A DNA stretch of 64,000 nt from Escherichia coli. Its GTDB lineage: Bacteria; Pseudomonadota; Gammaproteobacteria; Enterobacterales; Enterobacteriaceae. Position 1 is the first letter of the stretch. Each line of letters starts with the position of its first letter. Where the stretch lies: the NCBI RefSeq assembly GCF_041886205.1, contig NZ_CP169029.1, one strand, 5' to 3'. A model generated the notes under the pieces. It was not told the DNA's origin. It saw only the letters and a list, made by a program, of their open reading frames with translations, and made no database searches. Shown here piece by piece: positions 13,965 to 18,201 of the stretch. The translations under genes were made by a program, and so were the position numbers.

Positions 13965-15074
<1,110 letters not shown>

Positions 15075-15137
15075 TGGGCGGTATTCTGAAACGGCGATTG
15101 TCGTGAGAACAGAATGGTTGCACCAGAATACAGATAT

Positions 15138-15167
15138 AAAAAAACCGACATGACAGTCGGTTTTTTT
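15138..15167. terminator. bidirectional rho-independent terminator (A7-ccgac-atgaca-gtcgg-T7)
   Basis: 5-bp GC-rich stem flanked by A-run and T-run, 64 bp downstream of selU stop. Confidence 0.6.
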
Positions 15168-15226
15168 ATTTTTTCCGCCCAAGACTTGGTGGTTCCGGGC
15201 AGAAATGAAACAGTCCTCATCTAGCA
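15138..15226 (-). ncRNA. putative antisense sRNA (candidate type I antitoxin); ends approximate
   Basis: Minus-strand TTGAAT-17bp-TATAAT promoter (15232-15260), predicted transcript contains UGCUAGAUGAGGACUG complementary to 15397-15412, ends at the bidirectional terminator. Confidence 0.35.
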
Positions 15227-15231
15227 AGTGA

Positions 15232-15260
15232 ATTATAAGTCAGGATGCCTCCATATTCAA
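15232..15260 (-). promoter_or_regulatory. candidate sigma70 promoter for the putative sRNA
   Basis: -35 ttgaat (15255-15260), 17-bp spacer, perfect -10 tataat (15232-15237) on the minus strand. Confidence 0.35.
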
Positions 15261-15376
15261 ACAGCTATGTTGGCGATACAATCCCGACGCTAGTAGTGAT
15301 ACTGCCTCAAGGGATTACCGCAGTGCGGAAAAGTACTTTTAAGTCCTGGTCAGGATACAGGTGGTGCTGATTCTGG

Positions 15377-15385
15377 TGCTCTAAT
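15377..15385 (+). promoter_or_regulatory. candidate extended -10 promoter for the small-peptide mRNA
   Basis: tgctctaat resembles TGnTATAAT; -35 is poor. Confidence 0.25.
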
Positions 15386-15485
15386 TTGGAGAGAGGCAGT
15401 CCTCATCTAGCACATGAAGAAAATCATAGTTACAGGCAACGTAAGGGTAAGCTGTGATTGTCTTTCTCCCTTAAGGGAGCAACGG

Positions 15486-15569
15486 ATGAAAACTTTTCTC
15501 GATAAAGTTCTCATCGTTCTTAAGGCGCTAATCGCGCTGCTGGAACTGATCCGTCAGTTTATTGAATAA
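15486..15569 (+). CDS. 27-aa hydrophobic peptide MKTFLDKVLIVLKALIALLELIRQFIE, DinQ/TisB-like candidate type I toxin
   Basis: ATG preceded by aagggag SD 7 nt upstream; single amphipathic helix; own hairpin terminator; in-frame upstream ATG at 15414 would give 51 aa. Confidence 0.5.
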   Translation: MKTFLDKVLIVLKALIALLELIRQFIE

Positions 15570-15587
15570 CTGAGGAAACGTAGCTAA

Positions 15588-15615
15588 GGCCGAAGGTTTA
15601 CCACCTTCGGTCTTT
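15588..15615 (+). terminator. hairpin terminator after the small ORF
   Basis: ccgaaggt-ttacc-accttcgg stem-loop followed by TCTTT. Confidence 0.5.
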
Positions 15616-15670
15616 AAAAAAACCGACATGACAGTTGGTTTCATATTTATTGCCAAAATGCACACTGTTC

Positions 15671-15771
<101 letters not shown>

Positions 15772-15786
15772 ATCTAACACCTGTCA

Positions 15787-18201
15787 TCACCCCGCAAACT
15801 GCCTGAACAGCGCCTTACCCTTAACCAGTCTCGCGCCCAGCCAGCCGCCGAAAAGCGACAGCAGCAGCGCACCGCTGCACGGCAGAACAATCCACAATCG
15901 CCAGTCTGGCTCCCACGGGAAATCAAACACTTTCGCCTGCAACACTGCCAGTGCCGTTTCCGCACCAATTGCGGCCACCAGGCCGGAAACAAACCCAAGC
16001 ATGGCGAACTCACACCACAATGTCGTGCGCAGCAGTTTTTTCCCCGCACCGAGTGTGCGCCATACCACCAGCTCCTGATGACGCTGGCGCATTCCCACCT
16101 GCACCTGTGCCAGCAACAGCAACATACCGCAGGCGGTGACCAGCACCACCATCACCTCCAGCGCCCGACTTACCTGCTCCAGCACCTGACCGACCTGTTT
16201 TAAAATCGCGCCAATATCTAACAGGCTAATGGTCGGGAACTGGCGGTTGAGTTGCGTCAACATGCCGTTGCCATTCTCCCAGCGGAAACTGGTAAGCCAG
16301 CTCTGCGGTTGCCCGTCTAATGCCCCTTCCGGGAAAATAAAATAGAAATTAGGCCGCAGACTTTCCCAGTCCACTTTGCGCAGGCTGGTCACTTTAGCGC
16401 GGAACTCCTGGGTATCGCCCATAAAAGTCACGGTATCACCGAGGGCAACGTTTAAGCGTTTCGCCAGCCCCTCTTCCATCGACACTTCATCGGCTTTTGG
16501 CGGCCAGTTACCGGCGACAATCGGATTATGATCGGGCCGCGTATTTTGCCAGGTAAGATTGAGTTCGCGATTAAGCGCCTCATCTTCATTACCTTCTGTC
16601 GGCTTATCGTTAATCGCCGTCAGCCGCGCCCGCACTACCGGATAAAATGATTCCGGGACTATATGATGTTCCGCGAGGAACGCTTTTAGCGGTGCTACCT
16701 GTTCTGTGGCGATGTTAATTAAAAAGTAGTTCGGGCTTTCTGGCGGTAGCTGCTGCTGCCAGCGGTCGAGCAGATCGCCACGCAATACCAGCAACAGCGC
16801 CAGCAGCATAAAGGAGAGCGAAAATGCCGAAAGCTGACTTAACGTTGACCACGGCTGACGTAACAGGCGGCTAACCGCCAGGCGCAGAGGCAGCGATTTC
16901 AGCGTCATGCGGCGAAGTACATTCAGCAGCATCCAGCCCAGCACACCGCACAGCAAAGCCAGTACTACCGCGCCAGCCAGCACCGCCCAAAGCAGCATGC
17001 TGCCACCCATTAATCCGGCGAGCAGCAGCACAACCACCACACTGACAATCGGCAGATAAAACTTCAGCGGCCAGACGTTCGCTACCACATCATTACGTAA
17101 TACGCGTAAAGGCTGCGTTGCCAGCAACAAGCGATATGGTCGTAGCCCCACCAGCAGCGAGATGACCGTCATGGTGCCCAGCGCCCACAACCACGGCCAG
17201 AGGCTGGCTGGCGGTAGTGCAGCAGGCAGAACGGGCTTGAGCAGCACCATCAACACGTTTTCGAACAACAGGCCTATGGCCCCACCGGTAACGGCTGAAA
17301 GCGCCAGCACCATCAACCACTGACCGACGATTAGCTTACGCAGTTGCGCTCGCCCTGCCCCCAGCGTTTTGAGGATCGCCACCAGATCGTAGCGACTGCG
17401 ACAGTAATGATTCATCGCCACCGCCACCGCTGCCACTGCCAGCAGCAAGGTCAGAAGCGCCGAAAGCAGCAGGAACTGCTGCGAGCGTTCCATCGATCGC
17501 CCCAGCGCGCCTTCGTCCTGTTCCAGACCGTACCAGCGTTGTTCGGGTTTAAGCTGGGGTAACAACCATTTCTCATAGCCGTCGAGCTGGTTCTCGTTGC
17601 CGCCGAATTTATAACGCCAGGTGACCCGACTCCCCGGCTGCACGGCTCCGGTTTTATCGACATCCGCCAGATTCATCATCAGACGCGGAGCCATCTGGAA
17701 GGGGTTAAAACCAGAATCCGGTTCCTGAATCACTTCTCCGGCAATCCGCAAGGTGGCATCGCCCACGTCGATGGTGTCGCCTGTTTTCAGGTTAAGCAGC
17801 GCCATCAGGCGTGGGGCCAGCAATACGCTGCCCGCCTGCGGTTTCAGGCCAGGGGGATTAGTTTGCAGATCGCCATACATCGGGTAGATATCATCCACCG
17901 CTTTGACGTTCGCCAGCTGCGGTGTGTCGCCTGCAAATGTCATGGTGGCGAAAGTCAGCTGCTTGCCGACTTTCAGGCCGCGCTTTTGCGCTTCCTCCAG
18001 CCACGCTTGCGGCACTTCGCGCGAACTGCGCAACGCCCGATCGCCCGCCATAAACTCACGGCTTTGCTGGCTTAAGCCCTTCTCCATGCGATCGCTGATA
18101 TTGCCCAGCGCCAGCACGCAGGCCACCGCCAGGCTTAGCGCCAGCCAGACAATTAATAGCGACGGCGAACGCCATTCGCGCCAGAACCAACGTGCAATCA
18201 T
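15787..18201 (-). CDS. ybbP: ABC transporter permease (FtsX-like)
   Basis: 804-aa ORF with two FtsX-type membrane domains, overlaps ybbA by 4 bp. Confidence 0.88.
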   Translation of the reverse strand: MIARWFWREWRSPSLLIVWLALSLAVACVLALGNISDRMEKGLSQQSREFMAGDRALRSSREVPQAWLEEAQKRGLKVGKQLTFATMTFAGDTPQLANVKAVDDIYPMYGDLQTNPPGLKPQAGSVLLAPRLMALLNLKTGDTIDVGDATLRIAGEVIQEPDSGFNPFQMAPRLMMNLADVDKTGAVQPGSRVTWRYKFGGNENQLDGYEKWLLPQLKPEQRWYGLEQDEGALGRSMERSQQFLLLSALLTLLLAVAAVAVAMNHYCRSRYDLVAILKTLGAGRAQLRKLIVGQWLMVLALSAVTGGAIGLLFENVLMVLLKPVLPAALPPASLWPWLWALGTMTVISLLVGLRPYRLLLATQPLRVLRNDVVANVWPLKFYLPIVSVVVVLLLAGLMGGSMLLWAVLAGAVVLALLCGVLGWMLLNVLRRMTLKSLPLRLAVSRLLRQPWSTLSQLSAFSLSFMLLALLLVLRGDLLDRWQQQLPPESPNYFLINIATEQVAPLKAFLAEHHIVPESFYPVVRARLTAINDKPTEGNEDEALNRELNLTWQNTRPDHNPIVAGNWPPKADEVSMEEGLAKRLNVALGDTVTFMGDTQEFRAKVTSLRKVDWESLRPNFYFIFPEGALDGQPQSWLTSFRWENGNGMLTQLNRQFPTISLLDIGAILKQVGQVLEQVSRALEVMVVLVTACGMLLLLAQVQVGMRQRHQELVVWRTLGAGKKLLRTTLWCEFAMLGFVSGLVAAIGAETALAVLQAKVFDFPWEPDWRLWIVLPCSGALLLSLFGGWLGARLVKGKALFRQFAG

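Follow-up and report, generated by a model that had tools for sequence, protein, structure and literature searches.

The closest described relatives of the locus studied here are the dinQ-agrA/agrB system of Escherichia coli K-12, situated between arsR and gor (Weel-Sneve 2013; Kristiansen 2016), in which DinQ and the small RNA (sRNA) AgrB provide the experimental precedent (PMC3567139, PMC5066626), and the DqlB-AgrB pair of conjugative plasmids such as pOXA-48 (Nat Commun 2025, PMC12365149). In the dinQ model of Kristiansen et al., the +1 RNA is inert, with its 5′ end paired to 'sequence 2' and its Shine-Dalgarno sequence (SD) sequestered in a hairpin of sequences 3 and 4, while the +44 RNA is active, sequence 2 pairing with sequence 3 and leaving the SD free; AgrB re-closes the SD by annealing to sequence 2 (PMC5066626). 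The same study defined a dinQ-like (dql) family, comprising dqlA and dqlB, in enterobacteria, located on chromosomes as well as plasmids, reported strains that have dql alongside dinQ, and inferred the same RNA switch for dql (PMC5066626). Matching antisense RNAs for dql are predicted by T1TAdb. DqlB/AgrB of pOXA-48 is a validated addiction module, backed by toxicity, rescue by the sRNA, dependence on base-pairing and compensatory-mutation proof (PMC12365149). Here, we analyzed a 27-codon open reading frame (ORF) at positions 15486-15569 of a 64,000-nt stretch of E. coli DNA (contig NZ_CP169029.1; hereafter, the window), located at the junction of mnmH (also named selU) and ybbP.

We consider it likely that this ORF is the toxin gene of a complete dinQ/agrB (dql)-type type I toxin-antitoxin module, present as a second, accessory chromosomal copy besides canonical dinQ. 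Its parts can be read from the sequence: a gene for a DinQ-family peptide, a divergent AgrB-family sRNA gene equipped with a promoter and a terminator of its own, complementarity between this sRNA and the 5′ untranslated region (UTR) of the toxin mRNA, and homology of that UTR to the one of dinQ. In common with the K-12 system, the locus has a 27-aa peptide with an identical ALIALLELIR core, a divergent upstream AgrB-family sRNA whose 5′ end is predicted to anneal within the 5′ UTR, ~75-110 nt ahead of the start codon, a homologous 5′ UTR (with a predicted stem S1, SD hairpin and alternative 2:3 duplex), and a similar transcript length and terminator. It differs in its site (mnmH-ybbP instead of arsR-gor), in having one agr gene where K-12 has two, in starting with ATG instead of GTG, and in being devoid of a LexA box. 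The main value of the analysis is a correction: the ORF is better read as belonging to a two-gene dinQ/agrB-type module than as an orphan peptide.

Neither the gene nor its family is new. An earlier note on this DNA, made from the letters alone, had taken the ORF for unannotated and possibly undescribed, yet RefSeq, through the Prokaryotic Genome Annotation Pipeline (PGAP), lists it at the mnmH(selU)-ybbP junction as 'dinQ: damage-inducible type I toxin DinQ' (WP_349808740.1), and the dql family was published in 2016 (PMC5066626). In RefSeq, the identical 27-aa sequence is entered as a 'MULTISPECIES' protein found on at least 1000 contigs, and its NCBI name is DinQ, not Dql. The locus is thus already known, an ordinary second copy within a published family and not a new toxin, and current understanding of the dinQ/dql family is unchanged by our findings. 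A literature search retrieved no paper specifically on the mnmH-ybbP copy, with supplementary lists of published dql loci lying outside that search, and full-text queries with substrings of the peptide matched no paper.

The toxin gene and the end of its transcript comprise the following features:
15486-15569, plus strand: 27-aa toxin ORF with ATG start, MKTFLDKVLIVLKALIALLELIRQFIE (supported by profile, BLASTP, substitution pattern and RefSeq annotation)
15586-15614, plus strand: terminator hairpin of the toxin mRNA (inverted repeat I3, 12-nt arms at 15586-15597 and 15603-15614; aligns with the K-12 dinQ terminator)

The ORF and its translation are as first described, and so is the hairpin of its own behind the stop codon. 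The SD, AAGGGAG, is found at 15473-15479; its spacing, previously given as 7 nt, is 6 nt between the last G and the ATG, a difference of counting. As in K-12 dinQ, the U-tract after the hairpin is short (CUUU), which explains why a simple terminator scan made no call there. The suspected likeness to DinQ was borne out. The peptide matched the NCBIfam model toxin_DinQ (NF041472) over all of its profile positions (1-22 of 22) with 40.9 bits against a cut-off of 30 (E=1.8e-10), and BLASTP against K-12 DinQ gave 15 identities over 19 residues, with ALIALLELIR identical at 10 of 10. The DqlB model (NF041473) reached 24.5 bits, below its cut-off of 35, and covered profile positions 15-30 only. A resemblance to TisB and ZorO, also proposed earlier, did not hold at the sequence level, as a scan of the peptide against NCBIfam at E<=10 returned no family besides DinQ and DqlB, and none for TisB or ZorO. 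What the TisB-IstR1, ZorO-OrzO and ShoB-OhsC systems do share with the window locus, despite the missing peptide similarity, is a small hydrophobic toxin, a divergent trans-encoded sRNA that pairs with a long 5′ UTR, and a primary transcript that stays inert until its 5′ end is processed (PMC5066626). All homologs carried the precomputed Pfam label PF28061:DinQ; the protein homolog search had used a longer, 51-aa form of the ORF (discussed below) as query instead of the 27-aa peptide. A Pfam-A scan of the 51-aa form gave no match, presumably owing to an older release.

With a grand average of hydropathy (GRAVY) of 1.23, the peptide is predicted to form a single hydrophobic helix bearing an ALxxLELIR signature, in keeping with the helix character first attributed to it. 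Eight columns are invariant across DinQ, DqlB and the subgroup to which the window peptide belongs (V11, A14, L15, L19, E20, L21, I22, R23), and the subgroup follows the pattern K-x-(F/L)-(L/I)-(D/E)-K-(V/T)-(L/I)-I-V-L-K-A-L-(I/V)-A-L-L-E-L-I-R-Q-F-I-(D/E). Compared with DinQ, the window peptide has K13 in place of G and a C terminus that is both shorter and more polar (RQFIE versus RFLLQLLN), the GRAVY of DinQ being 1.79. DqlB, for its part, is 31 aa long and has a different N-terminal half (MINLLIIVLRAVVAVANALIAVLELIRELVD), with 48% identity to the window peptide.

By itself, a 27-codon ORF could arise by chance: the surrounding 5.5-kb stretch is overlapped by 85 ORFs of 20 aa or more, and the neighborhood is rich in repetitive extragenic palindromic (REP) sequences; one could thus suppose a fortuitous reading frame among intergenic repeats. 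Three things set it apart from a chance ORF, namely its homology, the third-position bias of substitutions among relatives and the associated sRNA. Over the 27 codons, comparison with six related loci gave proportions of non-synonymous differences (pN) of 0.07-0.15 and of synonymous differences (pS) of 0.34-0.56 (pN/pS ~0.15-0.33), the differences falling mostly at third codon positions, which argues that the peptide is under purifying selection. The peptide is conserved, with such a synonymous bias, across Escherichia, Salmonella, Enterobacter, Klebsiella (including Klebsiella aerogenes) and Yersiniaceae, and the sRNA and UTR architecture is conserved together with the peptide. In view of the E-value of the family hidden Markov model, the conserved sRNA/UTR arrangement and the pN/pS ratios, we regard the chance-ORF reading as refuted and give it practically no credence. 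The 27-aa ORF is real and, judged by homology, encodes a DinQ-family small membrane toxin.

Upstream of the ORF and on the opposite strand lies the component that the earlier note, in rightly proposing a type I toxin candidate of the DinQ family, had overlooked:
15136-15224, minus strand: AgrB-family antisense sRNA, predicted antitoxin (Rfam RF02891 AgrB; transcribed from 15224 to 15136)
15232-15260, minus strand: sigma-70 promoter of the sRNA (TTGAAT, 17 nt, TATAAT; 10 of 12 consensus matches)
15136-15169, both strands: bidirectional intrinsic terminator (14-bp stem with A/T runs at its sides; two-strand terminator scan, inverted repeat I1)

The Rfam match spans the full model (1-84) with 53.6 bits against a gathering score of 40 (E=4.9e-8), and it is this sRNA that makes the locus a toxin-antitoxin candidate and not a lone peptide gene. 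The RNA is predicted to fold into a free 5′ tail, a central stem-loop and the terminator (z=-4.9). The -10 element of its promoter ends 7-8 nt ahead of the Rfam-defined 5′ end, placing the predicted start at 15224/15225, and the TATA and TTCAAA blocks of the promoter are kept in an eight-locus alignment. An AgrB match was found upstream, divergent, and in the same place and orientation in all six related loci. The distance from the sRNA 5′ end to the ORF start is 261 nt here and 256-282 nt in the relatives and K-12. Rfam matches to OrzO-P at the locus scored 19-24 bits against a threshold of 60 and covered the terminator only. The terminator is probably also used by mnmH.

A 16-nt direct repeat (D2, CAGTCCTCATCTAGCA), with perfect copies at 15211-15226 and 15397-15412, gives the sRNA a 5′ end complementary to the 5′ UTR of the toxin mRNA, where the predicted target is:
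15388-15411, plus strand: sRNA target in the toxin 5′ UTR, overlapping 'sequence 2' of the dinQ model (repeat D2 and RNAduplex)

On this segment, RNAduplex predicted an uninterrupted 18-bp helix beginning at nt 1 of the sRNA, or 24 bp with one bulge. The energy of the cognate duplex was -46 to -48 kcal/mol, as opposed to -24.2 ± 3.1 for shuffled sRNA. The target lies at -98 to -75 relative to the start codon, a position shared with K-12 and the six relatives. The uninterrupted helix of 18 bp compares with 19-33 bp in functional pairs, 23 bp in AgrB/dinQ and 9 bp in non-functional AgrA, while the pairing as a whole is shorter than the 33-35 nt of complementarity described for AgrB/dinQ and AgrB/dqlB (PMC5066626, PMC12365149). 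Cross-pairing was predicted to be weaker: K-12 AgrB on the window UTR gave -31 to -35 kcal/mol, which is background, and the window sRNA on K-12 dinQ gave -39 to -42 kcal/mol. SRNA and target sequences have diverged between the two pairs, so that, going by these duplex models, the window system and canonical dinQ/agr are probably insulated from each other.

The locus can be aligned from the sRNA terminator to the toxin terminator with K-12 agrA-dinQ and the six related loci, and the features of the toxin mRNA follow from this alignment:
15254-15282, plus strand: putative promoter of the toxin mRNA (-35 TATTCA at 15254-15259, 17 nt, -10 TACAAT at 15277-15282; placed by alignment)
15289-15614, plus strand: predicted full-length toxin mRNA, ~326 nt, both ends predicted (alignment to K-12 dinQ, whose +1 transcript has 331 nt)
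15457-15479, plus strand: 'sequence 3' anti-SD (15457-15470) and SD (AAGGGAG, 15473-15479), able to form the hairpin CUCCC-UUAA-GGGAG or to pair, through sequence 3, with 15388-15400

The putative -35 element of the toxin promoter overlaps the opposite-strand -35 of the sRNA promoter, and the -10 TACAAT corresponds in the alignment to TATAAT/TATCAT in the relatives and to TATGAT in K-12 dinQ. With the K-12 numbering checked against PMC5066626, G15289 aligns with the mapped G+1 of dinQ and T15337 with the U44 processing site; by this alignment, the mRNA would start at 15289 and be processed near 15337. Folding was in part consistent with a dinQ-type switch. The minimum free energy structure of the RNA starting at 15289 had its 5′ end paired with 15393-15411 (S1) and GGGAG (15475-15479) paired with CUCCC (15466-15470), whereas in RNAs starting at 15336-15350 the segment 15388-15400 was paired with 15457-15469; when the sRNA target was blocked in silico, the SD hairpin re-formed. 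Compared with the other loci, the 2:3 helix shows a compensatory change from U:A to A:U and the alternative 3:4 helix one from A:U to C:G, which argues for continued selection on the switch.

From homology to dinQ and to dqlB of pOXA-48, and from these predicted folds, we infer a mechanism of the same class. The toxin mRNA would start near 15289 with its 5′ end paired to 15393-15411 in stem S1, and with the SD locked in the CUCCC/GGGAG hairpin the primary transcript would be translationally inert. Processing near 15337, the equivalent of U44 in dinQ, would then free 15388-15400 to pair with the anti-SD at 15457-15469 and so release the SD. By annealing through its 5′ end to 15388-15411, the sRNA, presumed to be constitutive, would restore the SD hairpin and block translation, and its binding would probably trigger cleavage by RNase III.

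To place the module within the species, its distribution was counted with a 421-bp module core as query in 5426 complete E. coli genomes. The core was present in 1326 of them (24%), always on the chromosome, and absent from the remaining 76%; 1260 of the 1326 carriers had it at 99% identity or more. Canonical dinQ adjoining gor, on the other hand, was found in 5422 of the 5426, so the module represents an additional paralog. About a quarter of E. coli strains would accordingly have a second DinQ-family toxin, with an sRNA predicted not to cross-pair with the canonical pair, which is of relevance to work on type I toxins, persistence and membrane depolarization in non-K-12 E. coli. Some 196 of the 1326 carriers (~15%) covered less than 80% of the query. 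Those inspected (H65-H69; UPEC69) shared a 108-bp deletion, equivalent to ~15398-15505 of the window, between the imperfect 10-nt repeats AGTCCTCATC and AGTTCTCATC. The deletion takes out the sRNA target, the SD, the start codon and the first 6-7 codons, and the allele is thus toxin-null; as a natural deletion it may offer comparison strains. Some of these deletion alleles are still labeled 'dinQ' by PGAP. In one further genome (NZ_OW967178.1, 397-1443), an insertion sequence (IS) element encoding an integrase core domain protein sits at the equivalent of ~15267, between the putative -35 and -10 of the toxin promoter, leaving the sRNA gene and its promoter intact.

Several of these observations weigh against a working module. 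The toxin promoter was not called by a consensus scan, on account of its weak -35 (3 of 6 matches). The total energy of the cognate duplex (-46) was the weakest of the pairs examined, the relatives ranging from -49 to -67 and AgrB/dinQ standing at -60, and it came close to that of AgrA/dinQ (-44), a pair that does not repress (PMC5066626). In the ViennaRNA fold of the truncated RNA, the SD re-paired with 15377-15382, while the same method opened the SD in the K-12 +44 control, so the 'on' state is not established in silico. A search of the literature yielded no expression, toxicity or sRNA-binding data for the mnmH-ybbP locus. Finally, the 108-bp deletion in ~15% of carriers, along with the IS insertion, indicates that the toxin is dispensable and that the locus may be decaying in some lineages. 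Taken together with the absence of the module from 76% of genomes, the pairing energy, the re-paired SD and the disrupted alleles could be explained if the locus were a decaying relic, that is, a dinQ/agrB homolog no longer working as a toxin-antitoxin pair here, with the toxin untranslated or the sRNA non-repressing, and persisting only through recent acquisition and neutral drift. We judge this unlikely, although it deserves more weight than the other alternatives. No lesion is seen in the ORF, the SD, either promoter or either terminator; more than 1100 genomes match at 99% identity or above, and the differences of the peptide from its relatives are mostly synonymous. Compensatory changes have kept both alternative UTR pairings, and the uninterrupted 18-bp seed helix at the sRNA 5′ end resembles that of functional relatives. 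A complete, second dinQ/agrB-type module remains the preferred reading.

With respect to its regulation, the module appears to part from canonical dinQ. No LexA operator (CTG-N10-CAG) was found within 15060-15800, the best 20-mer matching at 11 of 20 positions with one half-site only, while the K-12 dinQ LexA box (TACTGTATGATTATCCAGTT) matches at 15 of 20 with both half-sites. At the position aligned to the K-12 box, the window has TACTG-N16-CAGTG, with half-sites 16 nt apart instead of 10. A LexA box was likewise absent from the six related loci, i.e. from all seven non-K-12 loci examined. We reject SOS regulation of the window locus on these grounds: without a LexA operator, its transcription is probably not under SOS control, and the RefSeq label 'damage-inducible' is unsupported. 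The name 'damage-inducible type I toxin DinQ' is also attached to relatives on plasmids, in integrative and conjugative elements (ICEs) and in Yersiniaceae, and looks like a misnomer transferred by homology. A more far-reaching interpretation would be a LexA-independent DinQ paralog with a trigger of its own, or a chromosomal Agr-type sRNA serving as an anti-addiction element against Dql toxins of incoming ICEs or plasmids. On the UTRs of two chromosomal dql loci of Yersiniaceae, the window sRNA was predicted to pair with -46.6 and -47.5 kcal/mol, compared with -46.0 on its own target. If correct, either version would give the locus a role distinct from that of SOS-linked dinQ, but we hold this to be improbable.

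The same locus alignment bears on the length of the product. An in-frame ATG at 15414, with an open frame to the end of the ORF, would yield a 51-aa form, and the idea of a nested start there had been raised along with the short peptide. Such a product has been deposited repeatedly by gene callers (its cluster has 51 members), and K-12 dinQ, too, was first annotated as a longer, 49-aa ORF (PMC3567139). The ATG exists as claimed; conservation of the nested form does not, as all six related loci have in-frame stops 12-14 codons before the start of the core, and the equivalent of the KKIIVTGNVRVSCDC stretch is out of frame or interrupted in them. What is conserved in this region is 5′-UTR RNA (SL4 and the SD hairpin). 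Moreover, no SD precedes 15414, and this ATG lies right up against the sRNA target. In K-12, translation and toxicity are confined to the 27-aa peptide V (PMC3567139), and according to Kristiansen et al. an over-long N terminus is a frequent annotation error for Dql peptides (PMC5066626). With the upstream frame not kept open in the six relatives, we reject the 51-aa nested product and consider it very improbable that it, and not the 27-aa peptide started at 15486, is the true product; the 51-aa form is an annotation artefact that recurs in many database entries.

As to the place of the module within the family, it fits the description by Kristiansen et al. (2016) of dql loci that coexist with dinQ and often bear a long N-terminal annotation, and presumably belongs to the dqlA group. 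With DqlB-AgrB of conjugative plasmids it shares architecture and class of mechanism, and its 5′ UTR, ORF and terminator are ~66-76% identical at the DNA level to those of many plasmid dqlB loci; unlike these, it is chromosomal, and no role in plasmid maintenance is evident. A distant DNA search located the family on 1845 plasmid records at 66-76% DNA identity, mostly conjugative and mostly annotated dqlB. In light of these records, a tblastn search of the 27-aa peptide against plasmids, which returned nothing at E<=10, is uninformative, with low-complexity filtering or the short query as the likely cause. The closest relatives of the peptide outside E. coli lay either in ICE-like conjugation clusters (DUF3487, DUF2976, RAQPRD, TraG-D_C), as in Salmonella and Enterobacter, or on plasmid-like contigs, adjoining a large LPD7 protein; further ones were in Yersiniaceae chromosomes. 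In all three settings, subgroup members were always accompanied by an AgrB-type sRNA. The residence of its nearest relatives in ICEs and on plasmid-like contigs points to a mobile-element origin of the subgroup, and a mobile element is also the probable source of the module. The whole module occurred at 99.4% identity in just one record of the plasmid collection (CP061270.1, E. coli, 1,204,529 bp), which appears to be a piece of chromosome deposited under the heading of plasmids and not a true plasmid copy. The Klebsiella IncFIA/IncX1 plasmid p11A14015_C_KPC encodes, at 550-633, a canonical DinQ-type peptide (MIDKAIIVLGALISLLELIRYLLQLMG), so the DinQ-proper subgroup is not confined to the chromosomal arsR-gor site.

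The borders of the module were placed by comparison with the empty site of strain EC17GD31:
15092-15657, strand not assigned: whole module, ~566 bp, between mnmH (selU) and ybbP (block-wise presence/absence; edges approximate, within a few bases)
15615-15654, plus strand: degenerate, truncated second copy of the sRNA terminator (direct repeat D1, 40 nt, 83% identical to 15137-15176, spacing 478)

The flanking genes are mnmH/selU at 13980-15074 (plus strand) and ybbP at 15787-18201 (minus strand). The empty-site alignment places the left junction after ...ATTCTG and the right one before TGCAC(A/G)CTGTTCATGCC, and EC17GD31 has REP-type sequence in place of the module. Between the module and ybbP, positions 15660-15785 hold palindromic repeats of the REP/BIME (bacterial interspersed mosaic element) type, which match naRNA4 and ES036 of Rfam below threshold and recur, by megablast, tens of times in each E. 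coli genome; relative to this region, the empty site of EC17GD31 has one extra REP unit. A simple insertion or deletion of the module between the 40-nt D1 repeats was considered and rejected, since the empty site contains REP sequence and neither D1 copy. Directly behind the toxin terminator, the second terminator copy occupies the right edge of the module; it may be left over from a second agr gene or from the recombination event by which the module arrived at this site.

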